Shown here piece after piece: positions 7,083 to 26,181 of a stretch of 64,000 nt of DNA. Made by a program: the position numbers and the translations under genes. How positions within the stretch are numbered: the stretch's first letter is position 1; each line of letters opens with the position of its first letter. The notes beneath the pieces were generated by a model, which saw only the letters and a program-made list of their open reading frames with translations, ran no database searches and was not told the origin of the DNA. Origin of the DNA: a phage; the sequence record PZ402305.1; one strand, given 5' to 3'.

Positions 7083-7164
7083 TTATAAAATCTCCTTAGT
7101 AAGTGAATCTTTATTCTACACAAAGAGCTTTGCACATGTCAAGTAACTCTTTGTCAGATTAGTC

Positions 7165-7434
7165 TTAATGATTAGTGATGTTGATGACAATCTTAGTTTC
7201 AACCTTAGCCCAACAGTAATCTGCTTCATTAAAACGACTAGTCACAATGTATTCTCCTGCACGAGAACCTGTTAAGCACACTGCACCTGTATCTGTAGCT
7301 AAGTAGTAGTCCCGTTCTTGTTCACTTACTTCTGAATCGTAGTAGTAGAAAACAGACATAGGTTCAATTTCAGATAAACGGTATAACTTTGGAACAGGGG
7401 ATTTCTCGATAAACTCAACAGAAGTTTTACTCAT
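7165..7434 (-). CDS. hypothetical protein (89 aa)
   Basis: Track ORF. Confidence 0.6.
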   Translation of the reverse strand: MSKTSVEFIEKSPVPKLYRLSEIEPMSVFYYYDSEVSEQERDYYLATDTGAVCLTGSRAGEYIVTSRFNEADYCWAKVETKIVINITNH

Positions 7435-13476: not shown

Positions 13477-14466
13477 ATGCCAGTAAAGAAGAGTATTGAA
13501 CAATATATTGAAGAGTGTCAACCTATTGCTGCTGCTAAAGGGATTGAGATTATTGGAATTGTTGAGCCGTTTACAGGACAACACACGAAAATGATCAATC
13601 GTTGTCAGTATGCTCATGAATGGAACACTACAACATTTAAAAACTTTAAAACTGGTCGTGCTGGTTGTCCTGTCTGTGCAATTGGGAAAGGATTTGGGAA
13701 AGGAGGTAAGACAGACGATCAGCACATAAAAGATTTCATTAACACAGGAAAGTTTAAACCTGGTACCATTTTCACCAATACAGGCAAACGTAAAGGGAGT
13801 CATATTCTCTGGATGGTTGAATGTCCTGTTTGTTCTCATGATGAATACGTACAAGCAGGAGTGTGTGATGGTAAATTTTACATTGCAGGGAACGATCTTA
13901 AAAAAGGGATTATCCCTTGTCGTTGTACTAGAGTTTACCGTTATACAAAAGATCAGATCACTTACAAGGTGAGAAAAGGTTTAGAAAGTAAAGGATATAT
14001 CTGGATAGAGTGGATTAGTAAACCTTCCTCAACAGGAGAGTTTAAATATGGATGTAAGGATCACGGGGAGCAAATAGGGAATGCTGACCACTTATTACAT
14101 AAGGGGCGTGGTTGTCCGAAGTGTAAAGGGCATACACAACAACAGGCATACATCAACTATATCTACGATGAACAAAATCTTCTCTGTGCTTTGAAGTTTG
14201 GTATTGCCAATAGTAGTGATCGCCGTATCAAAGAACAAAATAGTCATAATGTGTTTACTATGAAACAGAGCCAAGTGTGGCACTTCCCTACTGTGAAGCA
14301 ATGCAAAGATGCAGAAAAGCGTTGTAAGCGTGTCCTTCACACGGAAGCAGTGAGCAAATATTCTATGCCAGATGGCTACACAGAAACAGTAGAGTTATCT
14401 TGCATGGCCTCAATACAAAACATTTATAAACTTTATGGTGGAACATTACAGGAGGAAACATGTTAG
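13477..14466 (+). CDS. Cys-rich putative multi-zinc-ribbon protein
   Basis: Repeated CPVC/CPxC/GRGCPKCKG pairs; start moved to ATG at 13477. Confidence 0.6.
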   Translation: MPVKKSIEQYIEECQPIAAAKGIEIIGIVEPFTGQHTKMINRCQYAHEWNTTTFKNFKTGRAGCPVCAIGKGFGKGGKTDDQHIKDFINTGKFKPGTIFTNTGKRKGSHILWMVECPVCSHDEYVQAGVCDGKFYIAGNDLKKGIIPCRCTRVYRYTKDQITYKVRKGLESKGYIWIEWISKPSSTGEFKYGCKDHGEQIGNADHLLHKGRGCPKCKGHTQQQAYINYIYDEQNLLCALKFGIANSSDRRIKEQNSHNVFTMKQSQVWHFPTVKQCKDAEKRCKRVLHTEAVSKYSMPDGYTETVELSCMASIQNIYKLYGGTLQEETC

Positions 14467-14825
14467 TTGACGTTCAAATTATGCGCAACGAAAGAATGGA
14501 CTTCTTTGAAGCAGTAGAGAAACATCTGATCAGATGGGACTATGAATTTGTTCCTGCTGGATGTGGACCAGTAGAGCATTTAGCGGAAGACGACGATGTA
14601 TACATGATCATTCGTCAAGTGTACCAGACAGACCAGTGTGAAGAAACTCCCGAACTAATTTTGTTTGAGTGCAAAGATCTTGCAAAATATTTTGACTATG
14701 GCGGAAAAGAGGGTCATAATCTCTCCAGATACAATAAACGCCTACTTATCTTAGACTACATGCGGAACAACAAACACAAACTAATCGACGCAGACGCAGT
14801 TTATGGCTACTGGTGGATGGATTAA
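14460..14825 (+). CDS. hypothetical protein (121 aa)
   Basis: Track ORF. Confidence 0.6.
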   Translation: MLVDVQIMRNERMDFFEAVEKHLIRWDYEFVPAGCGPVEHLAEDDDVYMIIRQVYQTDQCEETPELILFECKDLAKYFDYGGKEGHNLSRYNKRLLILDYMRNNKHKLIDADAVYGYWWMD

Positions 14826-14838
14826 CAAAGGAGAAACT

Positions 14839-15018
14839 ATGGCACGTTTAGCAGATCATGAAATCTTTAAACCTATTCTGAACCACTATGATGAACTTAA
14901 AGCAGTGTTGGATTGTTATAAAGAGGATGAAGAACGCTTGGAAGTCAATCTTAAGATAGTTCTGATGAAAGCTTTTCAAGACGGGCAAGCTAAAGTCTTA
15001 GAAGGTATGAAAAAATGA
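14839..15018 (+). CDS. hypothetical protein (59 aa)
   Basis: AAGGAGAAACT then ATG. Confidence 0.5.
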   Translation: MARLADHEIFKPILNHYDELKAVLDCYKEDEERLEVNLKIVLMKAFQDGQAKVLEGMKK

Positions 15019-15557
15019 GAATAACTGACGAATATGTATTCTTCTTTTCACATAAAGATGTTTTTAGTAATTGGTATATTGCACCCTTTACAGAAACCGA
15101 ACCAGGTTACAATCAGACATTTAATTGTGTCGAACAATACATGATGTGGCGTAAAGCTTTGCTTTTTAATGACCACAACACTGCACAGGCTATTCTGACT
15201 CATAGTTTGATACGGAAAGATGAGAAGATCCAAGCTTATTACAAACGTATGGGTAGGGCAGTGTCGGATTTTGATAACAACGTATGGGAAGAGAACCGTG
15301 AGCGTATTGTTATGCGAGGTTTATGCTTGAAATATGTACAGAATCCAGATTTGTATGCAGACTTACACCTTTACCAATACAAAACGTTTGTTGAAGCAAG
15401 CCCCTACGATAAGGTTTACGGAATTGGAATGGGGATGTATGAACCAGGGGTGCTAAACCCTGCCACCTGGAAAGGGCAGAATCTTTTAGGCAAATATCAT
15501 AACAAACTGATCGAAATACTTTTCCCAGACAAAATACCGCAAAGACGATATTTGTGA
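15015..15557 (+). CDS. NADAR-domain (DUF1768/YbiA-like) protein
   Basis: FFFSHKDVFSNWY, NCVEQYMMWRKALLFND, ASPYDKVYGIG fit the NADAR fold signature. Confidence 0.7.
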   Translation: MRITDEYVFFFSHKDVFSNWYIAPFTETEPGYNQTFNCVEQYMMWRKALLFNDHNTAQAILTHSLIRKDEKIQAYYKRMGRAVSDFDNNVWEENRERIVMRGLCLKYVQNPDLYADLHLYQYKTFVEASPYDKVYGIGMGMYEPGVLNPATWKGQNLLGKYHNKLIEILFPDKIPQRRYL

Positions 15558-15604
15558 TATTTTAACTTTTTTCATTTTTAGAACAAAGGTGTCACTTTGT
15601 AGCA

Positions 15605-15660
15605 CAGAAATAAGGCTCCTACAACACTGTAGAGAGCCTATTATTTTGTCCTATACAAAC
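15605..15660 (+). terminator. Hairpin terminator after NADAR gene
   Basis: Nested inverted repeat AGGCTC-CTACA-ACAC-TGTAG-GAGCCT followed by T-rich tract; approximate. Confidence 0.45.
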
Positions 15661-15779
15661 ACTTATCTTTTTCAGTTTGCATCATTAGGATTCGATCTAG
15701 GTGGGTTCCTGAAGGTCTGCCAATAAGATTAAAGGTTATCTCAAATTACCCCTACTTGTTATCTCAAAAATTCCTCAAA

Positions 15780-15990
15780 TTATTTAAACTTTTTAAGAAT
15801 TTACAAAAGTGAAAGTTGAAAACCAAAATTTAAAGTTTAGGAAAATTATCTTAAAATGTTAGATACAAAACAAAACTCAAAAGTCAAGGAAAATTTTAAA
15901 AATTTTGCGCGCCCACAGTATTTAAAGTTTTTTTGCTTTTACAAAAATGAAAGTACAAAAGCAAAATTTAAAGTTTACAAAAATTTATGC
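15780..15990. repeat. A-rich direct repeats (iteron-like)
   Basis: Two ~45 bp near-copies ACAAAAGTGAAAGTTGAAAACCAAAATTTAAAGTTTAGGAAAATT and ACAAAAATGAAAGTACAAAAGCAAAATTTAAAGTTTACAAAAATT plus shorter relatives. Confidence 0.55.
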
Positions 15991-16025
15991 AGATGGGAAT
16001 GAGAAGAGTTCTCATATGGAAATGC

Positions 16026-16046
16026 AAATGATAATGATTCGCATTT
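16026..16046. promoter_or_regulatory. Fur-box-like palindrome 1
   Basis: AAATGATAATGATTCGCATTT resembles Fur consensus GATAATGATAATCATTATC. Confidence 0.4.
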
Positions 16047-16083
16047 AGGTTTATAAATGAGATTGATTCTTATTCGATAAGGT

Positions 16084-16104
16084 AAATGATAATCATTCTC
16101 ATTT
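16084..16104. promoter_or_regulatory. Fur-box-like palindrome 2
   Basis: AAATGATAATCATTCTCATTT; 12 contiguous core matches to Fur consensus. Confidence 0.45.
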
Positions 16105-16362
16105 AGAGAATGACGCGCAGGGGCGGTGTTTGTCTCGCGTTCCCGTGTCCCCTCGCCATGTAATAAGAATAACAGATCCAGCCAGGAAAGCAAGCGATTA
16201 TTTCATCTTTACATTTCTTTACAAATATATAGCGCCCAGCCTACCGGCGATCAACCTTCCAACCAGTGCCCCTGGTATGTTAGCCCCGCCTTTACGCCGT
16301 GGGGTGGCGCTTCCTCTTCTGTATGTAAAACAGTATAAGCCCGATCCCTGGGCTTGTCAAGA

Positions 16363-16629
16363 TTATTTTTTGTTTTCTTGCCAGGATAGGACACCTAACC
16401 AAAAATACATATCGCCCCGCGCCCCTGGCGGGATCTTGCTTTCCCCGCCGCCACTGCAAGCCCATAGATAACCATTTGCGAACGTATCAAAATGATCTAT
16501 CTCTTCCACCTTATGATCGCCCAGGTTGAGAACGGTTTCAACCTTTAAGCCCGTTGCGCTTGCTACCTGGTGCACCGTGCCGCCTTGCCAGCCCAATGAG
16601 TGCATAAGGTGTAATGTAGTAGTTGTCAT
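16363..16629 (-). CDS. hypothetical protein (88 aa) in GC-rich island
   Basis: Only minus-strand ORF inside the plus-strand region; local GC clearly above surrounding phage DNA. Confidence 0.4.
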   Translation of the reverse strand: MTTTTLHLMHSLGWQGGTVHQVASATGLKVETVLNLGDHKVEEIDHFDTFANGYLWACSGGGESKIPPGARGDMYFWLGVLSWQENKK

Positions 16630-16736
16630 GGTATCGCCCTTTCTTTGTTGTGCGCCCTGGTTGGCGCGGTAGAAAGATGATAGCCCTTTCCTTTATATAT
16701 AGCAAGCAAAAAGAAAATAAAAAGATTGAAAAAGTG

Positions 16737-16795
16737 GTTGACGTTCGCCAGGTGGCGGCATAATATTTACCACGTAGGGCGGCAATGGTGCCGCT
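16737..16795 (+). promoter_or_regulatory. Early-type promoter + 5' hairpin module
   Basis: TTGACG-N17-TAATAT then CACGTAGGGCGGCAATGGTGCCGCTC. Confidence 0.6.
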
Positions 16796-16815
16796 CACTA
16801 TTTGGAGTTAAGATC

Positions 16816-17013
16816 ATGGCAACATTGCACATTGTGGCGAAAGCTGGACAAATCAACGTAATAGTAAACGGTTTTACTGAGTTCAGTCATCCCCAGGATG
16901 ATCATGAAACGGTTTTATCTTTCATTGATTCACTGTTAGAAATGGGAGTAATTACAGAAGATCAGCATACTGCAAAATGCAAGCGCGTTAAGCAGATTGC
17001 AGGAATAGAATAA
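16816..17013 (+). CDS. small hypothetical protein (65 aa)
   Basis: Start moved to ATG downstream of promoter/hairpin. Confidence 0.6.
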   Translation: MATLHIVAKAGQINVIVNGFTEFSHPQDDHETVLSFIDSLLEMGVITEDQHTAKCKRVKQIAGIE

Positions 17014-17018
17014 AAGTC

Positions 17019-17076
17019 TTGACAACAAGCCACAACCTGATAAGATGTATCACATAGGGGCGACAAGCGCCCCGCC
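17019..17076 (+). promoter_or_regulatory. Early-type promoter + 5' hairpin module
   Basis: TTGACA-N16-TAAGAT; hairpin GGGGCGACAAGCGCCCCGCC. Confidence 0.55.
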
Positions 17077-17097
17077 TAACAGAAGAGAGAAATCATC

Positions 17098-17370
17098 ATG
17101 GCATCATATAGCGCAACAATGATCGTAACTGGCACCACTGGTAAACCGATGAGCGGTGGCGGATCTTTCGCTAATATCAATATTGACGGGCGTTTATCCC
17201 TGGACGCAGCGATTGCCATTGCACGGGAAACATTTAAGAAAGAATGTAATTTCAACAAGCAAGATTATCTCGGTTTCGCTATTGAAAAAACCGCGCGCTT
17301 TGTTGATTATAAAAGCCCGAAAATGGTTGATACTACACTAAAAGCGCAAGATGTAGCGTTTTTGCTTTAA
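17098..17370 (+). CDS. small hypothetical protein (90 aa)
   Basis: Track ORF. Confidence 0.6.
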   Translation: MASYSATMIVTGTTGKPMSGGGSFANINIDGRLSLDAAIAIARETFKKECNFNKQDYLGFAIEKTARFVDYKSPKMVDTTLKAQDVAFLL

Positions 17371-17373
17371 GGC

Positions 17374-17429
17374 TTGACATTAACGAATAATTTGTTAATA
17401 TGTTACATAAAGCGGGAATAGTTCCCGCT
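17374..17429 (+). promoter_or_regulatory. Early-type promoter + 5' hairpin module
   Basis: TTGACA ... TAATAT; hairpin GCGGGAATAGTTCCCGC. Confidence 0.55.
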
Positions 17430-17446
17430 ATTTGTAAGGTGGTAGA

Positions 17447-17704
17447 ATGTTTTACATCAAATTAAAAGGTCACGTGATCGCGTTCAAAGATAACGCTTTT
17501 TACAGATTAGCAAAATATGCGTTAATACATCCCCACTATGTTTATATAAGGGGGCGTGACGAAATAAATATTTTTGATCAAACAACATGCGAAAACATCG
17601 AGATCCGCAAGGTTGGCGTACGTGATTATCGTACATCTTTCTACCCTTGCAAGGATTCAGCAAGTCTTTTTAAGGTATGTCAATTGTTGAAAAAAGGTGG
17701 TTAA
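17447..17704 (+). CDS. small hypothetical protein (85 aa)
   Basis: Track ORF. Confidence 0.6.
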   Translation: MFYIKLKGHVIAFKDNAFYRLAKYALIHPHYVYIRGRDEINIFDQTTCENIEIRKVGVRDYRTSFYPCKDSASLFKVCQLLKKGG

Positions 17705-17705
17705 T

Positions 17706-18263
17706 ATGGGCCGCGAATATGTGATCCAGTCTTGGGTAAAACATGAAGCAGATGATCCGCGCATCATTCCCGATCATCTTATCGATGAATCCACGGGATA
17801 TAGCGGTGAGCAAATAGGTAGCAGATTAGCACGTAGTAACGGCAACGTAAAAGCGCGTTATGTGCGCCCTGGCTGGCTGGCAAATGGTAACGCTGATTTA
17901 TCCAGTGCGGAAGATGCGAGCGACGGCGCGAAAGATAATCCTTTGTACAAAGTTGATCCGGCTTTTCGTGTCCTGGATGAATACCCCAGCAAGATAGCGG
18001 CGCTCGATCAGGCCCTGGAAAGTAAGCGCATCACCTGGACCGCTTACAACATGGCAAAAAACGTACTTGATGGTAAATTGATTCAAGCTGAAAGAAAATT
18101 AGCCAAAATTGCAGCCATAGCCCAGGAGGAAGACGAGGAGACAACGGAAGAGGAAGAGTACGAAGAGATCCCGCCGTTGTTGTGCGTTGATGCTTTTCCT
18201 GATTATCAGCCGACAGAGGAAGAAAAAAGGATCGCACTAGAAAACTTTGAAAATAGTCTTTGA
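17706..18263 (+). CDS. hypothetical protein with acidic C-terminus (185 aa)
   Basis: Start moved to ATG after AAAGGTGG; C-terminal EEDEETTEEEEYEE. Confidence 0.6.
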   Translation: MGREYVIQSWVKHEADDPRIIPDHLIDESTGYSGEQIGSRLARSNGNVKARYVRPGWLANGNADLSSAEDASDGAKDNPLYKVDPAFRVLDEYPSKIAALDQALESKRITWTAYNMAKNVLDGKLIQAERKLAKIAAIAQEEDEETTEEEEYEEIPPLLCVDAFPDYQPTEEEKRIALENFENSL

Positions 18264-18316
18264 CATATCGCCGCCACTGGCATAATATTTACCACGTAGG
18301 GCGGCAATGGTGCCGC
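18260..18316 (+). promoter_or_regulatory. Early-type promoter + 5' hairpin module
   Basis: TTGACA overlapping upstream stop; CATAAT; CACGTAGGGCGGCAATGGTGCCGC. Confidence 0.55.
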
Positions 18317-18345
18317 TCATAGTGAAATTATGCAAGAGGCTTACA

Positions 18346-18441
18346 ATGATTAATAAAGAAAATAGCTTGACGGTTGGAACGATTAACGCTATCATTTTCG
18401 CCGTTCCATTTTGGGTTGTATTAGCGGCTATTATTTTCTAA
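18346..18441 (+). CDS. small membrane peptide (31 aa)
   Basis: Not in track; only ORF behind this promoter; hydrophobic; approximate. Confidence 0.35.
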   Translation: MINKENSLTVGTINAIIFAVPFWVVLAAIIF

Positions 18442-18451
18442 AAAAATATTC

Positions 18452-18511
18452 TTGACAACGTTTTTTAATCTGATAAGATGTATCACATAGGGCGGCGGAA
18501 TACTTCCCCGC
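18452..18511 (+). promoter_or_regulatory. Early-type promoter + 5' hairpin module
   Basis: TTGACA ... TAAGAT; hairpin GGCGGCGGAATACTTCCCCGCC. Confidence 0.55.
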
Positions 18512-18533
18512 CAAAACAAAAAAGGGTAACACA

Positions 18534-18896
18534 ATGAGCAAGCAAATCAATACTATCATGTTTAATCTGGTATCTTTCCGCGATGATATGAAAAATTTAC
18601 CACGTGAAACGGTTGATATTCATGTTTCAGCTTATCGCGCCCTTATTGATATGTTACCGCTAAAACGTGATCAACATGCCGCTAATATGATGCTTAATGC
18701 TATGCTTAAAAAGATGATTCAAACGGATCTTACTCTGGCGTATGAGTATCAAGGGCGCTTATATGCTACTTACAACAAAGCGGTACCTGGTCTGGGAAGT
18801 ACCGAAGAGTTGCACGGCTTAAACCTGGATCAAAACACTTGGGATAGTATGCGCCGCGTTATGGTATGGGCCGAAAGCGGTAAAATTTACGAATAA
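18534..18896 (+). CDS. small hypothetical protein (120 aa)
   Basis: Track ORF. Confidence 0.6.
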   Translation: MSKQINTIMFNLVSFRDDMKNLPRETVDIHVSAYRALIDMLPLKRDQHAANMMLNAMLKKMIQTDLTLAYEYQGRLYATYNKAVPGLGSTEELHGLNLDQNTWDSMRRVMVWAESGKIYE

Positions 18897-18902
18897 AAAC
18901 GG

Positions 18903-18958
18903 TTGACACTGTTTAAAATTCTGGTATAGTTTATCACGTAGGGCGGCAATGGTGCCGC
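18903..18958 (+). promoter_or_regulatory. Early-type promoter + 5' hairpin module
   Basis: TTGACA ... TATAGT; CACGTAGGGCGGCAATGGTGCCGCC. Confidence 0.55.
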
Positions 18959-18979
18959 CAATAATAAAAGGTTAACATC

Positions 18980-19159
18980 ATGGCTATCATTGCAAAAACT
19001 GAGATTATAGGTTTAGATTCGATCCTCCTGGCTTATGAGGAAACTTTAAAAATGTATGTAGTGACCTATGGTGATTATGTGCGTGAATACGAATACATTG
19101 ATCTTGCTTTCGAATGTTACATTCGCCAGGTCAATAAAGCCTATAACGATTATCGTTAA
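18980..19159 (+). CDS. small hypothetical protein (59 aa)
   Basis: Not in track; sole ORF behind promoter; approximate. Confidence 0.45.
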   Translation: MAIIAKTEIIGLDSILLAYEETLKMYVVTYGDYVREYEYIDLAFECYIRQVNKAYNDYR

Positions 19160-19178
19160 AAGTTTTAGTCTTATACTA

Positions 19179-19236
19179 TTGACAATGAGTGATAGTATAA
19201 GCATAATAACTTTTATCGGGAATACTTCCCACTAAC
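19179..19236 (+). promoter_or_regulatory. Early-type promoter + 5' hairpin module
   Basis: TTGACA-N17-CATAAT; hairpin GGGAATACTTCCC. Confidence 0.5.
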
Positions 19237-19256
19237 CAAAAAGAGAGAGTGACACC

Positions 19257-19622
19257 ATGGCTATTAATATCAATGTTTCCGTTTATGCTACCCTGGCTGA
19301 CACGGCTAAAATTGAATTATCCAGCATTGAGGCGGTGCATATTAGCGCCCGTCGCTGGTTTCAACAGTCCTACGGTAACACATATTTTTCTTTAATAGTT
19401 GACGTTGAGATCGGCGGTAAACTGATCGAGGTGGTTAACGTTCCGTTTCAATATGGCTATGGTGATCATTTTGATACCGTCGCCCTGGAAGAATTTAGCA
19501 AGGTTATCAACCTTGAGGGCAAGGAATTTTCACGCGGCGCGTATCTTTCCCGTTTTTGCCGTGACAATGGGATCACTGTATACAGTCATGCAAGCGATGT
19601 AAAACGTAAAAAAGATTTATAA
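19257..19622 (+). CDS. small hypothetical protein (121 aa)
   Basis: Track ORF. Confidence 0.6.
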   Translation: MAININVSVYATLADTAKIELSSIEAVHISARRWFQQSYGNTYFSLIVDVEIGGKLIEVVNVPFQYGYGDHFDTVALEEFSKVINLEGKEFSRGAYLSRFCRDNGITVYSHASDVKRKKDL

Positions 19623-19627
19623 AAGTA

Positions 19628-19690
19628 TTGACAGCACGAATAAAAAGAGTAAACTGTATTACATAGAGAGCGGGAACACTTCCCGCCTCA
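19628..19690 (+). promoter_or_regulatory. Early-type promoter + 5' hairpin module
   Basis: TTGACA-N16-TAAACT; hairpin GCGGGAACACTTCCCGCC. Confidence 0.55.
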
Positions 19691-19710
19691 CTGAAAAAGA
19701 GAGAAAAATC

Positions 19711-19950
19711 ATGGCTAAATCTAAAATGTACAACGGTCACAAAAACAAAACTCATTGGAATGTAAGCCTTTGGATTAATAACGATGAATCATTATATCGG
19801 TTGGCGAAAGAATTTATCGCCGCTAATACTAATCGTAATGATGCTGCGCGGGATATGATGCTTTTTCTGGAACAAACTGGACAAGATAAAACGCCAGACG
19901 GTTTCAAATATAGCACTACTGCGATCCGCGCCGCGATGGTTGGAATGTAA
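19711..19950 (+). CDS. small hypothetical protein (79 aa)
   Basis: Track ORF. Confidence 0.6.
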   Translation: MAKSKMYNGHKNKTHWNVSLWINNDESLYRLAKEFIAANTNRNDAARDMMLFLEQTGQDKTPDGFKYSTTAIRAAMVGM

Positions 19951-19959
19951 TAAAAACAG

Positions 19960-20017
19960 TTGACAACGTTTAAAATTAGTGTAAGATGTATCACATAGGG
20001 CGGGAAGTGGTTTCCCG
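19960..20017 (+). promoter_or_regulatory. Early-type promoter + 5' hairpin module
   Basis: TTGACA ... TAAGAT; hairpin GGGCGGGAAGTGGTTTCCCGCC. Confidence 0.55.
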
Positions 20018-20041
20018 CCAACAACAGAGAGATTAAAGATT

Positions 20042-20269
20042 ATGGCTATCAATATTGTTCGCGTATCCGGCACCGTTGGCACTTCCCAGGTTATTGCAGT
20101 TGTAACAAACAAAAAGATTAATGATGTATGTGAGATCTTGAATAAGTGGGCTATTGCTAATTTTGGGGAATATGCAAGCGTCGAGTACATCGAATCCTAC
20201 CAGGTGCCAACCATCAGCCTAACCGATCTCAACGTTGATCGCCTGTTATGCCTGGATGAATTAATCTGA
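20042..20269 (+). CDS. small hypothetical protein (75 aa)
   Basis: Track ORF. Confidence 0.6.
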   Translation: MAINIVRVSGTVGTSQVIAVVTNKKINDVCEILNKWAIANFGEYASVEYIESYQVPTISLTDLNVDRLLCLDELI

Positions 20270-20278
20270 AAAAGATTG

Positions 20279-20335
20279 TTGACACGGGAAAGAAAAAGAG
20301 TAAACTATATTACGTAGGGCGGCAATGGTGCCGCT
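20279..20335 (+). promoter_or_regulatory. Early-type promoter + 5' hairpin module
   Basis: TTGACA-N16-TAAACT; ACGTAGGGCGGCAATGGTGCCGC. Confidence 0.55.
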
Positions 20336-20359
20336 CACAACAGAAGAGAGATTATCACG

Positions 20360-20572
20360 ATGGCTAATATCCGCACACTGTTAAAAAATGCAAAACAAGT
20401 TTTATTTTCTGATCACAATCATTTTAATAAAGATATTACAGGCGTGAAGAATATCAAAGATGTAAAAAGTGTTATGGGTATATATTGCAATGTTAAACGT
20501 GTTGGAACGTTCGGTGACAAGGTATTGTATCAATCAGGTGATTACAATTTTACTTTGACGATTATTTCATAA
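20360..20572 (+). CDS. small hypothetical protein (70 aa)
   Basis: Track ORF. Confidence 0.6.
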   Translation: MANIRTLLKNAKQVLFSDHNHFNKDITGVKNIKDVKSVMGIYCNVKRVGTFGDKVLYQSGDYNFTLTIIS

Positions 20573-20577
20573 AACGC

Positions 20578-20639
20578 TTGCAATACTGCAAAAATAAAGT
20601 AAACTGTATTACATCAAGGCGGGGAATGGTCCACCGCCT
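20578..20639 (+). promoter_or_regulatory. Early-type promoter + 5' hairpin module
   Basis: TTGCAA ... TAAACT; hairpin GGCGGGGAATGGTCCACCGCC. Confidence 0.5.
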
Positions 20640-20662
20640 AACAAAGAGAAGAGGAAAACATC

Positions 20663-20830
20663 ATGATTACTTTTACTACCCGTGAAGCCGCTCGCAACGT
20701 TGCACGTAAAGTTAACGCCGCCAACCTGGGTGCTACGCTTAAAGCCCCTGTAAAAGATGAATCAGGCAAATGGATCTTCCCTGGTCTGCGTCATGCTGAC
20801 AAGTTAGGTACTTTAAGCCTTAAAAAATAA
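20663..20830 (+). CDS. small hypothetical protein (55 aa)
   Basis: Not in track; approximate. Confidence 0.45.
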   Translation: MITFTTREAARNVARKVNAANLGATLKAPVKDESGKWIFPGLRHADKLGTLSLKK

Positions 20831-20833
20831 TCG

Positions 20834-20880
20834 TTGACTTTTCGTTATAGCGCCTTATAATGGGCGCTATAGAGAAGAGA
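20834..20880 (+). promoter_or_regulatory. Promoter with -10 embedded in a palindrome
   Basis: TTGACT-N16-TATAAT inside inverted repeat ATAGCGCC/GGCGCTAT. Confidence 0.5.
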
Positions 20881-20908
20881 AACCAATCACCAGAAAGAGA
20901 GAAAGAAA

Positions 20909-21127
20909 ATGGCAATCCGTAAAATTAAAGTTGTTTGCATTGAATCAACTGGTGGCGCGTTTGTAGTTGGTCAGAAGTATAATGCGGTTTTAATGGGCGT
21001 GGATTGGAAGGTTAAAGGTCTTGACGGTTACGAATACGGCACTACTCGCGGCTTGCGTGGTCGAATCGGATACGTGAGCTTTGACAACAAAGAAAAATTT
21101 GTTTTCGATACTGTTATGAGTAAATAG
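20909..21127 (+). CDS. small hypothetical protein (72 aa)
   Basis: Track ORF. Confidence 0.6.
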   Translation: MAIRKIKVVCIESTGGAFVVGQKYNAVLMGVDWKVKGLDGYEYGTTRGLRGRIGYVSFDNKEKFVFDTVMSK

Positions 21128-21200
21128 CACGAATTGCTAAAAACTAATCTGCGAATTGCTGTAATATCAACTAATCGAAACACATAAAGAGAAAAACATC

Positions 21201-21422
21201 ATGATCACTTTCGCTATTGTCACCGTTGTCGCTGGTCAAGTTTACGTAAATGAGACATTTACTACAGAAGACAAAGCAGCAGGAGATATAACCGCCGTTT
21301 ACAACGAGTGCAAGGCAGTAGAAAGGATGTTAGCGCCTTGTATGCTAATGAGTGAACGCCAGGACGGGATAACAGTGTTTAGCAACATTGAAACAGGGTA
21401 CCAAATGGTAGTAACAAAATAA
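21201..21422 (+). CDS. small hypothetical protein (73 aa)
   Basis: Track ORF. Confidence 0.6.
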   Translation: MITFAIVTVVAGQVYVNETFTTEDKAAGDITAVYNECKAVERMLAPCMLMSERQDGITVFSNIETGYQMVVTK

Positions 21423-21426
21423 AACT

Positions 21427-21485
21427 TGACACAGATTTAATTTTCAGTAAACTGTTACACATAGGGCGGGAATAGTTCCCGCTAA
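21427..21485 (+). promoter_or_regulatory. Early-type promoter + 5' hairpin module
   Basis: TTGACA ... TAAACT; hairpin GCGGGAATAGTTCCCGC. Confidence 0.55.
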
Positions 21486-21500
21486 AAAGAGAGAAAGACC

Positions 21501-21854
21501 ATGAAAGCACAAAATGCAATTAAAGAGTACATCCTTGCCGCTATCGATTTTAATGATTATGGTATTACAACCGAAAAAGAGAAGATCGCGGAATTGATGC
21601 GCCGTTTTAATTCCGAGTACTGGTACCCTGATAATCAATCACGTTTTAATTATAGTATTGTTAAAGCACTTGCATCATGGTTACAAGGTTTGCCATCAGA
21701 CATTAATATCGCTTTCGAATATTGGGAAATTGATCGTTTGTTAACATCCTGGGGATACATTAAAGAGAATAGCAGCGATGATAAAATCCAACGAGAAAGG
21801 GAAAATTATTGGCTTTATATTGCAGGCGTGATCCTTGCTTGCTCTTATGAATGA
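21501..21854 (+). CDS. small hypothetical protein (117 aa)
   Basis: Track ORF. Confidence 0.6.
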   Translation: MKAQNAIKEYILAAIDFNDYGITTEKEKIAELMRRFNSEYWYPDNQSRFNYSIVKALASWLQGLPSDINIAFEYWEIDRLLTSWGYIKENSSDDKIQRERENYWLYIAGVILACSYE

Positions 21855-21860
21855 TAAACC

Positions 21861-21918
21861 TTGACAATTTTACAAAACAGCTTAAATTAATAATATAGCG
21901 GCAATGGTGCCGCTCATA
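21861..21918 (+). promoter_or_regulatory. Early-type promoter + 5' hairpin module
   Basis: TTGACA ... TAATAT; hairpin GCGGCAATGGTGCCGC. Confidence 0.55.
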
Positions 21919-21933
21919 TAAAGAGGAAACAAA

Positions 21934-22080
21934 ATGAATACATCTAATCGCGCAGAAAAAATTCAATCTCCCAAGATCCGCAAGGCCTGGAACGAGGAAG
22001 TGATCCGCAAAGGCGACAAGCGTAATAAAACAAAGCGCGGGAAGAGTGACAAATATAATTGGATGGATTTAGAGGATTAA
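21934..22080 (+). CDS. small basic protein (48 aa)
   Basis: Not in track; Lys/Arg-rich; followed by terminator; approximate. Confidence 0.45.
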   Translation: MNTSNRAEKIQSPKIRKAWNEEVIRKGDKRNKTKRGKSDKYNWMDLED

Positions 22081-22084
22081 CATA

Positions 22085-22115
22085 ACAAGGGCGCACCAAG
22101 CGCCCTTTCTTTTTA
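22085..22115 (+). terminator. Rho-independent terminator
   Basis: AAGGGCGCACCAAGCGCCCTTTCTTTTT; same hairpin recurs at 27172. Confidence 0.6.
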
Positions 22116-22135
22116 CATGTAGAGGATAAACAAAA

Positions 22136-22321
22136 ATGACTTTAAACGAGCTTAAAACAGCCTACAACGCAACGTTAAAAATAGCCGTGCGTTACCGTGA
22201 CGAATACGGTTTTATTGCGCAGGGCGTGATCCTGGGCTTTTCTGACGATGGTTTGATTTATGTTGATGCACATCACAACAAGGTTAAACCGGAAAACGTT
22301 ATCAGTATAAAATATCTTTAA
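22136..22321 (+). CDS. small hypothetical protein (61 aa)
   Basis: Track ORF. Confidence 0.55.
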   Translation: MTLNELKTAYNATLKIAVRYRDEYGFIAQGVILGFSDDGLIYVDAHHNKVKPENVISIKYL

Positions 22322-22327
22322 AAGTGG

Positions 22328-22390
22328 TTGACACCATAACCGGACCTGTTAAACTGTATTACATCAGGCGGGGGAATAGTTCCCCACCAT
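22328..22390 (+). promoter_or_regulatory. Early-type promoter + 5' hairpin module
   Basis: TTGACA ... TAAACT; hairpin GGCGGGGGAATAGTTCCCCACC. Confidence 0.55.
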
Positions 22391-22407
22391 ACAAAAAGGT
22401 AAATATT

Positions 22408-22614
22408 ATGATCACCGCAAAACAAGAAAAAATCATTATCGACGTTGCAGCCGTTGCCGCTATTGCTATTATTGGATCTTATTATGATACCCGTTTCCCG
22501 TCGGCTATGCATGAGGTCGCCGCCGTTGCATCAGTTGGCGTACTGTTTTACGTTGGTAAACGCTATTTATCACCAATGATTAACAAGCTGACACCGTGGA
22601 AAAATAAAGGTTGA
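22408..22614 (+). CDS. small membrane protein (68 aa)
   Basis: Start moved to ATG after promoter; two hydrophobic segments. Confidence 0.55.
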   Translation: MITAKQEKIIIDVAAVAAIAIIGSYYDTRFPSAMHEVAAVASVGVLFYVGKRYLSPMINKLTPWKNKG

Positions 22615-22685
22615 TCCTGTTTTATATTGTGTTATAGTTATCGTGTAGGGCGGCAATGGTGCCGCGCCCCTTTGAGGATGCAATC

Positions 22686-22970
22686 ATGAGTAAAGCTAAC
22701 ACCGTGCTAATGTTTTCCCTGATTAATGATCCCGCTTACTTGTCCAACATGACGCAGGAGGGTAACACATTAACGGCAACATTCACCAATAAGCTTGACC
22801 GAGTGATCATCATCTCACTGAAAACAGTTAGTAAAGGCTTTTACTCGTTAGCTTATCATTGGATCACTGATACCGATGAGACAAGCCAGGACTATAGCGC
22901 CCCTTTCCCTGAATCAATGGCACGGGAGATCATCGCCGCCGTTGTAAATGATGGTTTGTTTACTGCATAA
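22686..22970 (+). CDS. small hypothetical protein (94 aa)
   Basis: Start moved to ATG after GAGG; hairpin GGGCGGCAATGGTGCCGC in leader. Confidence 0.55.
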   Translation: MSKANTVLMFSLINDPAYLSNMTQEGNTLTATFTNKLDRVIIISLKTVSKGFYSLAYHWITDTDETSQDYSAPFPESMAREIIAAVVNDGLFTA

Positions 22971-22985
22971 AAATTTAGAAAAGGC

Positions 22986-23045
22986 TTGCAATAATTTTGA
23001 GATAGTGTATATTTAATTCATAGGGCGGCGGGAATAGTTCCCAAA
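22986..23045 (+). promoter_or_regulatory. Early-type promoter + 5' hairpin module
   Basis: TTGCAA ... TATATT; hairpin GGGAATAGTTCCC. Confidence 0.5.
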
Positions 23046-23065
23046 GCAAACGAGAGGATTACACG

Positions 23066-23185
23066 ATGAGCAAGTACACAGTAGAATACACGGTAGAGAA
23101 TCCGGCAGTATCCGAAGGTAAAAAGATGACATTTGCCATCAGTATAATCGCTTTCGTTGTCACTATCTTATCAATCATCTTATAA
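23066..23185 (+). CDS. small membrane peptide (39 aa)
   Basis: Not in track; hydrophobic C-terminal half; approximate. Confidence 0.4.
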   Translation: MSKYTVEYTVENPAVSEGKKMTFAISIIAFVVTILSIIL

Positions 23186-23195
23186 GGTGCACACC

Positions 23196-23357
23196 ATGAA
23201 AATAACAGACATTATCAAAGAGATCGCCCTTGCCGCTGGCGTTGAAGTCGAGGAAGTGATCGCGCTCAATCTTACAGAAAACGATCTGCGCAACTATGAA
23301 GCGGAAAGCGTGAAAGCAAGCGGCGCGGTCCTGGTATATGATCCGGCTAACAAGTAA
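23196..23357 (+). CDS. small hypothetical protein (53 aa)
   Basis: In-frame ATG within track ORF 23157..23357. Confidence 0.5.
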   Translation: MKITDIIKEIALAAGVEVEEVIALNLTENDLRNYEAESVKASGAVLVYDPANK

Positions 23358-23366
23358 GGGGATAAC

Positions 23367-23477
23367 ATGAATCCGAAAGATATGCAAGCATGGAAAGGGT
23401 ACGACGATCTAAGCGCCTTGCGCAATAAGTCAAGCCGTAACCTTAGACGGTTGGAAGCAAAGAAAAAGAAAAAATAG
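23367..23477 (+). CDS. small basic peptide (36 aa)
   Basis: Not in track; AAGGGGA upstream; C-terminal KKKKK; approximate. Confidence 0.35.
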   Translation: MNPKDMQAWKGYDDLSALRNKSSRNLRRLEAKKKKK

Positions 23478-23478
23478 T

Positions 23479-23535
23479 TTGACAAGTCCGCGTAGTCTGA
23501 TAATATGTATCTTGTAGGGCGGCAATGGTGCCGCT
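23479..23535 (+). promoter_or_regulatory. Early-type promoter + 5' hairpin module
   Basis: TTGACA-N17-TAATAT; TTGTAGGGCGGCAATGGTGCCGC. Confidence 0.55.
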
Positions 23536-23555
23536 CACAAGAAGAGAGAAAAATC

Positions 23556-23840
23556 ATGAAAATTACAAAAAGCCTAACTAATTATGCAGCACGTCGCGGA
23601 TTATGTTTAACCGTTGAAAACTTAGGGAAAGAAGACTTTTTGTGTTTTTGGGAGCTTGAAAATGATTGCGAGTGGATGTTTTCTTATTCTATCTGCGAAG
23701 ATCAAAACGGTTGTTTGTTAACCTGGCGCGGTAATATCTATTTACCGGAAGAAATCAAAGAGGAACTACCAGGCACGATCATGACTGAGAAACAGCTTAA
23801 GGAAGTGATCAATTTTGTAGGGCAAAACATTAAAAAATAA
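23556..23840 (+). CDS. small hypothetical protein (94 aa)
   Basis: Start moved to ATG after promoter/hairpin. Confidence 0.6.
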   Translation: MKITKSLTNYAARRGLCLTVENLGKEDFLCFWELENDCEWMFSYSICEDQNGCLLTWRGNIYLPEEIKEELPGTIMTEKQLKEVINFVGQNIKK

Positions 23841-23841
23841 T

Positions 23842-23905
23842 TTGACAGTAGGCAAACAACGTAGTAAAGTTTATTACATAGAGCGGCGGAATGGTCCACC
23901 GCTCA
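23842..23905 (+). promoter_or_regulatory. Early-type promoter + 5' hairpin module
   Basis: TTGACA ... TAAAGT; hairpin GCGGCGGAATGGTCCACCGCTC. Confidence 0.55.
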
Positions 23906-23925
23906 CAACAGAAGAGAAACAAATC

Positions 23926-24096
23926 ATGATCCCGACTATGTTTTATGTATCGCGCAAAGGTCACAATATTTTTTGGTCTGAAGATTTAAATGAAGCTATG
24001 ACGTTTGCCCGTAATCGTGTTGCTATCGGTGGCGTTAACATCACCGTAACCGATGAAAATGGCATTGAATACTATAACGGCGACGATGAAGAATAA
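23926..24096 (+). CDS. small hypothetical protein (56 aa)
   Basis: Start moved to ATG after promoter/hairpin. Confidence 0.55.
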   Translation: MIPTMFYVSRKGHNIFWSEDLNEAMTFARNRVAIGGVNITVTDENGIEYYNGDDEE

Positions 24097-24174
24097 TTAA
24101 TGAGGCGGGGGGAGTATTCCCCGCCGTCAATATGGCGGGGCAATAAGGCAACGCCCATTAATGAGGGTAAAATC

Positions 24175-24279
24175 ATGTTAGAGAAAATTTTCACGGTTGC
24201 AGTGGTTGGCCTGGCGTTATCGGTTGGAGTGGTTGCAACTATGGCTAACATGATCCTATCTTCCCACGGTATCGGTTAA
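24175..24279 (+). CDS. small membrane peptide (34 aa)
   Basis: Not in track; preceded by two GC hairpins; approximate. Confidence 0.35.
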   Translation: MLEKIFTVAVVGLALSVGVVATMANMILSSHGIG

Positions 24280-24289
24280 GGTGAAACAA

Positions 24290-24505
24290 ATGATCACGAA
24301 CAAAACAGGCAAAACGGAATTTTTACGCGGCTTACAAGTTGGTAAGCCTGAGATCTGGCATTGCACGAAGTCCGCGCATAATGAAATGAAAGATTTCACC
24401 GCTACTTTACAACGTGTTAAAATATCTATTACACAGAAAAAAGCCTTGTTAGTAGTAGAAAACGAGATCCCACAAACTATTATTATTGTCGAGCGTACAG
24501 CATGA
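24290..24505 (+). CDS. small hypothetical protein (71 aa)
   Basis: AGGTGA then ATG at 24290. Confidence 0.55.
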   Translation: MITNKTGKTEFLRGLQVGKPEIWHCTKSAHNEMKDFTATLQRVKISITQKKALLVVENEIPQTIIIVERTA

Positions 24506-24888
24506 AAACAGAAATCATTATTGAAATCATCAACGGCTATAAAGAAGCTTTTATTTTTGCTGAATCAGCAAGGGATCATGAAGGTAATTTTATTGATAAC
24601 TTAGACGATTATGATTTTTCTCCTAGCGCGGACGAACGGATCGCCCAGGATGTAACAGCCTTTATTAATGCTAATCTTGCCGCTATCTCTGAGGCAATGA
24701 GCGACGGCGCAACAGCCAACCAGATCGGGAATGATTTACATTTTACCCGTAACAGTCACGGCGTAGGCTTTTGGGATCGCCCTGAAATATACACCACTAA
24801 CACGGCGAACCGCCTAACCAATGCAGCTAAGTTTATGCCGAACGTGTCGGCTTACATTGGTGAAGATAATTTGATTTATATTGAATAA
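24502..24888 (+). CDS. small hypothetical protein (128 aa)
   Basis: Track ORF, ATGA overlap. Confidence 0.6.
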   Translation: MKTEIIIEIINGYKEAFIFAESARDHEGNFIDNLDDYDFSPSADERIAQDVTAFINANLAAISEAMSDGATANQIGNDLHFTRNSHGVGFWDRPEIYTTNTANRLTNAAKFMPNVSAYIGEDNLIYIE

Positions 24889-24894
24889 AAAGTA

Positions 24895-24950
24895 TTGACA
24901 CAGATCGCCAGTGTGCTAATATTTACCACGTAGGGCGGCAATGGTGCCGC
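24895..24950 (+). promoter_or_regulatory. Early-type promoter + 5' hairpin module
   Basis: TTGACA ... TAATAT; CACGTAGGGCGGCAATGGTGCCGC. Confidence 0.55.
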
Positions 24951-24971
24951 TCCCCGAAAAAGGTAAACATT

Positions 24972-25163
24972 ATGGAAACCATCTCCTACCTGGAATCGAA
25001 TAACATGTTTTTTGCGCCCGTTGATGAAATCATCGAAGCATTAAACAACGAGGAAGGGATCAAAGGTTTATCTTATAGCCAACTTTTAGGAATGGTTGCA
25101 GCAAATGAAGAGCTTGCTTACTATGTTGAAAATTTTGATGAAGCTGTAATCTTTACAAAATAA
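24972..25163 (+). CDS. small hypothetical protein (63 aa)
   Basis: Track ORF. Confidence 0.6.
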   Translation: METISYLESNNMFFAPVDEIIEALNNEEGIKGLSYSQLLGMVAANEELAYYVENFDEAVIFTK

Positions 25164-25166
25164 TCC

Positions 25167-25225
25167 TTGATCTAATCTCTTAGATAACTTATATTTAATG
25201 CGTAGGGCGGCAATGGTGCCGCCGA
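25167..25225 (+). promoter_or_regulatory. Early-type promoter + 5' hairpin module
   Basis: TTGATC ... TATATT; GCGTAGGGCGGCAATGGTGCCGCC. Confidence 0.5.
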
Positions 25226-25241
25226 TAATGAGGAAAGTAAA

Positions 25242-25541
25242 ATGGAAACTATCGCTATTGTTACCGTAGAAAAACTGGTTGTTGGTGATGTATTCGCGTT
25301 AATGGTGCCTAACAGCAGCAAACTGGGCGCTTATGAAGTAATGGATCATAAAAATGAATCATTTGGCGACGGTTGCACAATGGCGGTAAAATCTTTAAAG
25401 GATGGAATCATCCGCCAGGCTAACTGGCACAAAGGGAATCAAGTCGGTTTAATATCAGCTAATTTCTTGCCAGAAGAGCAAACGTTAGACCAACTATCAG
25501 GCGGTAAGACGTTAGCCGAGCTACTGGAAACAGCGATCTAA
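25242..25541 (+). CDS. small hypothetical protein (99 aa)
   Basis: Track ORF. Confidence 0.6.
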   Translation: METIAIVTVEKLVVGDVFALMVPNSSKLGAYEVMDHKNESFGDGCTMAVKSLKDGIIRQANWHKGNQVGLISANFLPEEQTLDQLSGGKTLAELLETAI

Positions 25542-25585
25542 TCAACAAAGGGGCGGCAACGCCCCACATCAGAAAGGAAAAGATT

Positions 25586-25822
25586 ATGAGTATTGCAACA
25601 GTATTAAACGCCGTTAAAACCGCTGAATCATCCGGCTTGCATGTTGAGCTTATAGATCAACCAGGTGGCGATCTCCTTGTCCAGGTTTACCCGCCGAAAG
25701 TAGGGGATGATCATTATTGGTGCTATTCTGATACGTTCGAACAAGTAGACACGAAAGCGATCACGGCTTTTATTTTAAAAGCTATTGAAGAAAATAACTT
25801 TCATTATAACATCAATCAATAA
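25586..25822 (+). CDS. small hypothetical protein (78 aa)
   Basis: Track ORF; leader hairpin GGGGCGGCAACGCCCCAC. Confidence 0.6.
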   Translation: MSIATVLNAVKTAESSGLHVELIDQPGGDLLVQVYPPKVGDDHYWCYSDTFEQVDTKAITAFILKAIEENNFHYNINQ

Positions 25823-25879
25823 ACTTTAAGCAGGGGGCGGTAACGCCCTATTAAACGCAATAGGAAGAGGATAGAAAGC

Positions 25880-26170: not shown

Positions 26171-26181
26171 GAAAGGTAATC

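Follow-up and report, generated by a model that had tools for sequence, protein, structure and literature searches.

The DNA analyzed here (the window) is a 64,000-nucleotide (nt) stretch of phage sequence, record PZ402305.1, in which a first-pass annotation had singled out positions 16110-16700 as an abruptly GC-rich island of ~0.6 kb with a lone minus-strand open reading frame (ORF), and had suggested either a moron gained by horizontal transfer or a structured RNA. The locus comprises an 88-amino-acid (aa) protein gene in the right half of the island, a conserved non-coding element with two predicted leftward promoters (P1 and P2) in its left half and, beyond it, four palindromes resembling the Escherichia coli Fur operator beside AT-rich repeats. 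The 2 kb around the island match ~145 phage genomes, the best of which (PNJ1809-36, ASO2A, ESCO13, and phAPEC8, all Phapecoctavirus, Stephanstirmvirinae) are 96 to 97.7% identical over the full length. By sequence, the window is that of a Phapecoctavirus, i.e., a phAPEC8/ESCO13-like E. coli myovirus.

A GC-rich island with a minus-strand protein gene

The compositional shift was borne out by sliding-window analysis, in which the G+C of 200-nt segments rises from 0.24-0.28 at 15700-16100 to 0.47-0.54 at 16100-16700 (window mean, 0.393). With a G+C of 0.501, the island stands at z ~4.2 relative to all 591-nt windows of the 64 kb (mean, 0.393; standard deviation, 0.025); 0.04% of these match it, and the global maximum of 0.504 starts at 16096, making this the GC-richest ~0.6-kb stretch of the entire window. 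The limits of the GC-rich segment were redrawn at ~16108 and ~16700, the minus-strand ORF occupying the right half only. From left to right, the region comprises a non-coding left half (16108-16362, 255 nt; 51% G+C, no credible ORF), the ORF (16363-16629; 49% G+C), and a divergent promoter region (16630-16815; 45% G+C). The ORF itself (16363..16629) starts with ATG, encodes 88 aa, and does lie opposite to its neighbors, all the long ORFs listed around it at 13-20 kb being on the plus strand; GC skew is positive from ~9 to 46 kb of the window. Its G+C at third codon positions (GC3) is 0.52, compared to 0.32-0.46 in ten neighboring genes. The high G+C of the island is attributable to this unusually high GC3 together with G+C-rich helices and conserved motifs.

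The 88-codon ORF (phrog_19316; ESCO13_00265 family) is a genuine protein-coding gene. In a search of 5.8 billion proteins, its product has 21 homologues, most of 72-93 aa and a single one of 120 aa, with identities reaching down to 40-47%. Those with a name or on a long contig are phage or phage-like, and most of the others are on assembly contigs. Their alignment shows an invariant N-terminal block (T5, L8, M9, L12, W14, G17, T18, V22, T26, G27, L28, V30, L34, and L36) as well as a C-terminal FW.G. Nucleotide differences from UPEC06 are distributed over codon positions 1, 2, and 3 as 15, 6, and 35 (22 synonymous and 19 non-synonymous codon changes), and the AlphaFold2 model is all-helical, with five helices and a predicted local distance difference test (pLDDT) score of 94.6. 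By tblastn, the gene is found in 151 phage records, similar to the 145 records matching the region at the DNA level, and relatives carry the ORF as an annotated hypothetical protein.

As to its function, the PHROGs match (phrog_19316) is a family of unassigned function, Pfam and NCBIfam searches gave no match, and sequence and structure searches for a helix-turn-helix or other fold gave no significant match. An exhaustive profile search of 1.8 billion proteins yielded 220 clusters, mostly of 80-120-aa proteins, in which the five shorter clusters that were scanned had no significant Pfam match; three long multi-repeat matches were rejected as leucine-rich-repeat false positives. This is, in short, an ordinary, already annotated hypothetical phage gene. 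Its slot differs in content only between genera: Certrevirus phiTE has, at the equivalent place, a minus-strand ORF (phiTE_079) whose N-terminal domain is that of the 88-aa protein (hhalign probability, 99.1%), an unrelated 63-aa ORF occupies the slot in Mydovirus KpS8 and Seunavirus 4MG, and the slot of CR8 is without an ORF.

The gene appears to form a transcription unit of its own, apart from the neighboring operon. A sigma-70-like promoter (TTGCTA-17-TATCAT; 9/12 in a consensus scan) is predicted on the minus strand at 16705..16677, followed by a GC hairpin in the 5' untranslated region (16643-16659) and a ribosome-binding site, as read from the sequence, and a terminator-like hairpin lies downstream at 16355..16337. 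Inside the gene there is also a plus-strand terminator-like hairpin (16416-16432), CCCGCGCCCCTGGCGGG then ATCTTGCTTT, which could halt rightward transcripts entering the island.

The conserved non-coding element

Directly after the stop codon of the 88-aa gene, on the same strand, lies P1 (TTGACA-17-TATACT, 16332..16360), the best promoter match in 15500-17100 (11/12), whose spacer doubles as the terminator-like hairpin of the upstream gene. A P1 equivalent was found in 25 of 25 copies of the element (24 loci); it scores 9-12/12, has a spacer of 17-18 nt, and stops 18-22 nt short of the first conserved helix. The spacer sequences are unrelated, and the hexamers vary (TTGACA, TTGCAA, or TTGACG; TATACT, TATATT, CATAAT, TATAGT, or TACAAT). 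CR8, for its part, has the element but no annotated minus-strand ORF next to it, which argues that P1 is not a by-product of the gene terminator. By consensus match, the element would thus have its own promoter on the sense strand.

The conserved core (16226..16324, minus strand), delineated from alignments of 19-23 distinct copies, would form the body of a putative P1 RNA with a predicted start near 16324 and a purine-rich leader. It comprises an invariant helix S1 (CGCC/GGCG, 16309..16306 with 16298..16295), a putative pseudoknot helix S2 (CCCC/GGGG, 16304..16301 with 16287..16284) that becomes CCAA/UUGG in the Erwinia phage and in a divergent copy, L025a, and a hairpin H3 (16279..16260) with a loop of 4 to 8 nt across copies. 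The H3 stem is kept via A-U/G-C exchanges, and also where its sequence is wholly replaced, as in L025a, the Erwinia phage, and SSBI34, while indels of 1, 5, and 6 nt occur in the loop. Since the loop indels are not confined to multiples of 3, breaking every frame, the core is not coding; there is no conserved reading frame and no plausible-start ORF downstream of P1. Next to H3 is an invariant single strand, AAGGU-N-GAUCGCCGGUAG (about 16257..16241), in its fuller form AAGGU-N-GAUCGCCGG(U)AG, followed by a variable 15 nt and by the direct repeat TGTAAAGA-N2-TGTAAAGA (16206..16223, minus strand; unique in the window at 0 mismatches). This repeat (RNA form, UGUAAAGA-N2-UGUAAAGA) is nearly invariant across copies and lies just upstream of the second promoter.

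In most lineages, the core is followed by such a second promoter/stem-loop unit. P2 is clear in most other genera (TTGCAA-17-TATATT; TTGATC-16-TATTAT). The corresponding zone of the window (16150..16224, minus strand) is weak and ambiguous, the candidates being TTGTAA-16-AATAAT at 16224..16197 and TTGCTT-16-TATTCT at ~16181..16150, the latter read from the alignment. Downstream of it (16092..16156, minus strand) there is a GC-rich stem-loop with a conserved apical GAGACAAACACC, then a hairpin (CAUUCUC/GAGAAUG) with a U-rich tail that scored as terminator-like (16114..16092) and resembles a weak intrinsic terminator. In the minus sense, the P2 stem-loop segment of the window folds at -27.3 kcal/mol (z = -3.4; plus sense, z = -1.8). 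It begins with CA(U/C)(A/G)G(C/G)G, like the CAC(A/G)TAGGGC that follows plus-strand early promoters.

The motif CAC(A/G)TAGGGC (16 matches; 5.0 expected) recurs just downstream of sigma-70-like promoters and marks a repeated module of early promoter plus 5' stem-loop, with plus-strand sites at 16771, 17051, 18293, 18484, 18935, 19992, 21458, 24927, and 26439. Terminator-like hairpins inside promoter spacers also occur elsewhere, e.g., at 16745-16758.

In nucleotide sequence, the ~250-nt element is conserved across Stephanstirmvirinae and most Vequintavirinae genera. A sensitive blastn search of phage genomes with 15560-16815 showed that outside Stephanstirmvirinae only ~16026-16370 still aligns, at 68-78% identity. 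The matching phages include Certrevirus phiTE, CR8, and F1M1E; Mydovirus KpS8, KB57, and KNP2; Seunavirus 4MG and EspYZU12; the Henunavirus Erwinia phage pEp_SNUABM_01; and Av-05, UPEC06, and SSBI34. Vequintavirus (rV5-like) phages have only the left ~120 nt in common. Another 16 viral contigs with the element came from a pattern scan of IMG/VR. Among 267 loci, an nhmmer profile of the element matched only phage-like ones, and the matches listed include three phage-like metagenome contigs that carry it. The bacterial-genome and metagenome loci in this set came from an unspecific 17-base GC-rich pattern, with at least 120 chance matches each; the profile hidden Markov model had no match in the listed bacterial-genome loci, a sample limited to such chance pattern matches that leaves absence from bacteria unproven.

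The stretch under the element is unannotated in most of the distant phages. In the annotation of relatives, ~800 bp to the left of the ORF are gene-free save for a terminator, two tuntematon repeats, and a plus-strand ORF in phAPEC8, and no plausible ORF of at least 20 aa was found there. A covariance model of the core detects one copy in the window (16236-16321, minus strand; 93.9 bits), one copy per related genome, two in the viral contig L025, and none in rV5-like or T5-like loci. An Rfam scan of 14000-19000 on both strands gave only a chance-level match elsewhere (17032-17092; E 0.16), five homologous loci had no Rfam match at E <= 1, and a search of the window for transfer or transfer-messenger RNA genes found none. 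Literature searches for descriptions of the element returned nothing relevant, nor did they return a description of Fur boxes in lytic phages; the element and its adjoining Fur-operator-like arrays are thus apparently undescribed.

The two copies in L025 (IMGVR_UViG_2974574029) are ~0.9 kb apart, at 6151-6423 and 7032-7174, one being full-length with a divergent core and the other partial with a canonical core. The divergent copy, in which CCAA/UUGG replaces CCCC/GGGG and the hairpin differs, is similar to the form seen in the Erwinia phage. Several candidate identities were considered and discarded: membership of an Rfam family, for want of a match; the pseudo-ToxI of phiTE, which is at 106.7 kb of that genome whereas the element is at 39.5 kb; and RfaH ops, nut/boxA-boxB, TyrR box, CsrA sites, and CRISPR-repeat mimicry, which on inspection by eye fail either in the conservation of key positions or in symmetry.

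Fur-operator-like palindromes and AT-rich repeats

In the path of the predicted leftward transcripts lie four 19-bp palindromes (15998..16103; repeat family D1) with the consensus AATGAKAATSATTCTCATT, starting at 15998, 16027, 16056, and 16085, i.e., at a spacing of 29 bp. This consensus pattern has 6 matches in the window compared to 0.16 expected. The sequence at 16082-16100 matches the canonical E. coli Fur box consensus, GATAATGATAATCATTATC, at 16/19 positions (0.07 chance matches expected per window). The box core ATAATCATTCTC is identical in the K-12 fhuA promoter, which has TATAATAATCATTCTCGTTTACG, and the rV5-like box has 16 nt in common with that promoter. Similarity of the array to the E. 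coli chromosome at E <= 10 amounts to two weak matches only, one of them in the DNA 85-120 nt upstream of fhuE, with AAATGCAAATGAgAAaGATaCGCATT corresponding there to AAATGCAAATGAtAAtGATtCGCATT of the phage (common pattern, AAATGCAAATGA.AA.GAT.CGCATT). Both fhuA and fhuE are Fur-repressed genes.

At a cut-off of no more than 3 mismatches to TGATAATNATTATCA, which two of the four window palindromes pass, boxes accompany 24 of the 25 copies of the element, with none after the second L025 copy. Outside the Phapecoctavirus group, most lineages have the first box 62-65 nt past the -10 of P2; the boxes of the window would lie at +40 to +145 relative to the P2 start. The palindromes thus resemble the E. 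coli Fur operator, and Fur binding can be predicted. The boxes are common to unrelated phage families, which favors a host protein as the ligand. To the left of the palindromes, the gene-free DNA (15776..15985) falls to 24-28% G+C and carries two copies of a 72-nt repeat 138 bp apart, also in the path of the predicted transcripts.

Similar arrangements were observed at other sites. In the T5-like phage ESCO30 (L010 2060-2560), at least six of the same boxes, one of them a perfect AATGAGAATCATTCTCATT, are found within ~650 bp of the left end of the genome, beyond the last annotated gene. Two perfect DnaA boxes (GTCTGTGGATAAC) lie next to them, as do three copies of GTGCAAATCCGAC. The window has a second gene-free region of ~1.6 kb (27200-28810), A/C-rich and of negative GC skew, with Fur-operator-like palindromes at 27407, 28275, and 28454; its segment 28454-28530 resembles the box, GAGAAT, and GC-hairpin module of 16085-16160. 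To the left of the palindromes of phiTE (39.15-39.43 kb; L004 1140-1420) there are ~8 repeats of the GGGTCTCGATCG type, each with a GATC, and repeats of this iteron-like appearance are also present in CR8 and EspYZU12.

The element is near a genome terminus in some records, which start or end nearby; elsewhere the region is 5-14 kb from the end. Salmonella phage R7 (PQ002170.1), filed under Demerecviridae yet carrying a Vequintavirinae-type element, starts 72 nt before the palindrome/element, and its first 91 bp are repeated at the end (L009 1-91, L275 943-1033); 80 bp of this repeat are annotated as attL/attR, and it could be an assembly overlap or a terminal repeat. In the window, the gene directly to the left of the gene-free region (15015-15557, plus strand) encodes a NADAR-domain protein (PF08719, E 8e-36), NADAR being an ADP-ribose-processing family.

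Interpretation and comparison with known systems

The evidence that the core functions as RNA is mixed. When the structure formed by S1, S2, and H3 was examined in 19 distinct copies, 92.8% of cells were paired compared to 87.3 ± 0.6% in shuffles, and 5 of 17 pairs were changed on both sides (1.7 ± 0.8 in shuffles), four of them in H3. The covariation score was 0.139 versus 0.048 in shuffles, while slid controls were 25-48% paired. The slid controls are surpassed by every covariation measure, and 500 shuffles by all but one. If there is an RNA, it would be read from the minus strand, as indicated by the promoter orientation, by G-U pairs in the P2 outer stem and in the hairpin of the phiTE P1 spacer, which on the other strand are C-A mismatches (as read from the alignment), and by the topology of the pseudoknot. 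In the minus sense, this would be of the H type, loop 1 being of 1 nt and loop 3 of 7 nt and A-rich; on general pseudoknot geometry, the plus-sense loop lengths would be sterically awkward.

Several observations weigh on the other side. The sequences on which the structure was tested were also those from which it was derived, S1 is invariant throughout, and the S2 covariation is essentially that of one lineage (CG to AU, Erwinia phage/L025a). In a 315-column alignment, RNAalifold returned a covariation term of -0.08 kcal/mol with only 2 compensated pairs. The core does not fold more stably than shuffled sequence (z, -0.1 to -1.8 on either strand; minus sense, -1.83 in the window, -0.41 in KpS8, and -0.14 in phiTE, none of them significant), and the fold of the P2 stem-loop is significant in the window lineage only, not in the other lineages. 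Pair counts are equal on both strands (92.8% versus 93.5%). P1 and P2 are consensus matches only, P2 is weak in this window, and outside the Phapecoctavirus lineage no clear terminator was found for the 3' end of a P1 RNA. Nor does any promoter scoring at least 9/12 overlap the boxes, save for a weak leftward TTTATA-18-TATCAT at 16057..16028. On balance, comparative analysis makes an RNA gene in the left half of the island plausible. The earlier suggestion of a structured RNA thus holds in part: it fails for the ORF, which is protein-coding, and survives for the DNA adjoining it.

The reading that we favor, with moderate confidence, is that of a leftward early block in which a small protein gene is followed by an autonomous non-coding RNA locus, encoding a regulatory or decoy RNA, with the Fur-like array gating or exploiting transcription. 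Host RNA polymerase would transcribe the island leftwards inside the rightward early-gene cluster. The 88-aa early gene would be driven by its own sigma-70 promoter and be provided with a 5' stem-loop and a terminator. Directly after its stop codon, the near-consensus P1 would launch an RNA of ~100 nt consisting of the purine-rich leader, a small H-type pseudoknot (4+4 bp, A-rich third loop), and a variable-length hairpin, and exposing an invariant purine-rich single strand. This strand would be complementary to the 3' end of 16S ribosomal RNA, with a bulge at the one variable base. The P2 unit would come next in most lineages, and transcription would then reach the four Fur-operator-like palindromes and the AT-rich repeats. 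The most likely role would be that of an early phage regulatory or decoy RNA, and read-through into the repeats may depend on host Fur and hence on iron.

The same features could instead reflect a purely DNA-level region, in which the motifs (the GATC-containing AAGGTNGATCGCCGGTAG, the TGTAAAGA repeat, and the palindromes) bind host or phage proteins governing the divergent early promoters and any transcript is functionless. We consider this unlikely, although it is in line with the extreme nucleotide invariance and the few covarying positions. The mostly invariant core fits a protein-binding DNA site as well as it fits an RNA, and the nonsignificant fold z-scores, the equal pairing on both strands, the direct repeat immediately upstream of the P2 -35, and the adjacent Fur-like operators all agree with it. 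What it explains poorly is the H3 stem, since maintenance by compensatory change, total replacement in L025a and the Erwinia phage, and a loop of 4-8 nt are hard to reconcile with duplex sites; moreover, the element starts at a fixed distance from a strong promoter.

Somewhat less probable still is a replication origin or origin-activating region, where leftward transcripts would pass through the G+C-rich segment into iteron-like palindromes and AT-rich repeats and so prime or activate unwinding. The layout is suggestive, with ~800 bp of gene-free DNA, four evenly spaced palindromes, AT-rich repeats at a 138-bp spacing, and two leftward promoters aimed at them; the equivalent stretch of phiTE has its ~8 GGGTCTCGATCG repeats, and in the T5-like phage the same palindromes stand beside two perfect DnaA boxes. 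These T5-like boxes, however, are at the genome end, while the T5 origin is described as internal. The window has 18 DnaA boxes versus 20.6 expected, which is no enrichment, and none of them falls in 15560-16400. The palindromes match a host operator common to unrelated T5-like phages, which argues against phage-initiator iterons, and the conserved hairpin and pseudoknot would be left unexplained. There is no extreme of cumulative GC skew at the site either, the turns at ~9 kb and 46 kb being skew sign changes; according to the rV5 genome paper, skew changes in that phage follow transcription orientation.

A recently acquired host-derived moron, i.e., a foreign GC-rich one-gene cassette in an AT-rich phage region, is very improbable. 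The part of this proposal that stands is descriptive: the gene is a self-contained unit on the opposite strand with an atypical GC3, the slot varies between genera, and the island G+C (0.50) is near that of E. coli. Recent acquisition from the host found no support. Neither the island nor the core DNA had a blastn match in 5,426 complete E. coli genomes, the host comparison that the first-pass annotation had in mind, and 72,556 plasmids gave only a chance match (E 0.8). The E. coli and plasmid DNA thus revealed no foreign origin, and record counts, the only measure used for this, revealed no patchy presence in close relatives. The protein homologues with a name or a long contig are, as stated, of phage type, gene and element are common to the whole subfamily at 84-98% identity and the element to two subfamilies, and half of the island is non-coding.

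That the conservation of the left half is due to a real plus-strand gene of 113 codons (16130..16471), an open frame in the window and an annotated coding sequence in phAPEC8 (phAPEC8_00257), is scarcely credible, as it overlaps the well-supported minus-strand gene, is interrupted in homologous elements by 1-, 5-, and 6-nt indels, lacks three-base periodicity of its variable positions, and is unannotated in most other records. Plus-strand ORFs of this type (16130-16471; L011 2071-2412) are probably spurious calls, and the annotation was corrected here. The element is likewise covered by JES2013 ORF185 and, in other records, by several "hypothetical proteins."

An extension of the favored reading, that of an early non-coding RNA with a leftward promoter, would be that the RNA, with its super-Shine-Dalgarno-like strand and coupled to host Fur operators, lets the phage sense or manipulate the iron status of the cell, a solution on which T5-like phages would have converged. 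This is a speculative proposal that we regard as improbable. If it were true, Fur would gate read-through, or would be titrated off iron-uptake and receptor genes as the phage genome replicates, and unrelated T5-like phages would have arrived independently at the same operator arrays, located on the leading end of their DNA as it enters the cell. The Fur-like arrays point to a connection, open to testing, between lytic infection and the iron regulation of the host. The element itself has no Rfam entry and is left in public records either unannotated or under dubious ORFs. If the RNA is made, it would be among the few conserved non-coding RNAs known in large virulent coliphages, several of which belong to phage therapy collections.

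Non-coding RNAs expressed from host-type early promoters are known in phages, e.g., the band C/D RNAs of T4 and the OOP RNA of lambda. A further phage-encoded non-coding RNA is the pseudo-ToxI of phiTE (PMC3475682). Like these, the element described here is short, gene-free, and promoter-driven, has a predicted pseudoknot and hairpin, belongs to virulent enterobacterial phages, and is conserved better than the neighboring genes. Unlike pseudo-ToxI, to which it has no sequence or Rfam relationship, it is single-copy and not a tandem repeat. The genome paper of rV5 shows a non-coding box on the map, reports many sigma-70 promoters and an inconclusive origin search, and does not describe the element.

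Closer parallels lie in the phage's own early modules. P2 and the promoter of the 88-aa gene share with them a TTGACA-like -35, a -10, CAC(A/G)UAG(G/C)GG, and a GC stem-loop, and by this signature the two promoter/stem-loop units belong to the early-promoter class of the phage. The layout recurs at least nine times on the plus strand at 16771-26439, including hairpins inside promoter spacers. Unlike these plus-strand modules, P1 and P2 point leftwards with no downstream ORF, and the ~100-nt P1 core occurs once per genome. The 88-aa gene in turn recalls the morons of temperate phages in being a single gene of atypical composition and opposite orientation with its own promoter and terminator. 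It differs from them in belonging to a virulent myovirus, in its subfamily-wide distribution without a bacterial homologue, and in its use of the phage's own early-gene promoter module.

As to replication origins, lambda ori consists of four dyad-symmetric 19-bp iterons beside an AT-rich stretch, and the T7 primary origin of two promoters plus an AT-rich region; T4 oriF/oriG and ColE1 RNA II were also compared. The locus has in common with the lambda and T7 origins four dyad-symmetric 19-bp repeats by an AT-rich region and promoters directed toward that region. It departs from them in that the repeats resemble a host repressor operator and that neither DnaA-box enrichment nor a skew signal accompanies them. 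With the Fur operators of fhuA and fhuE, finally, the palindromes share the 16/19 match to the consensus and, for fhuA, the core ATAATCATTCTC. They differ in forming an array of four tandem boxes at a 29-bp spacing, located downstream of the predicted promoters rather than over the -35/-10 sequences, and in being carried by a virulent phage.

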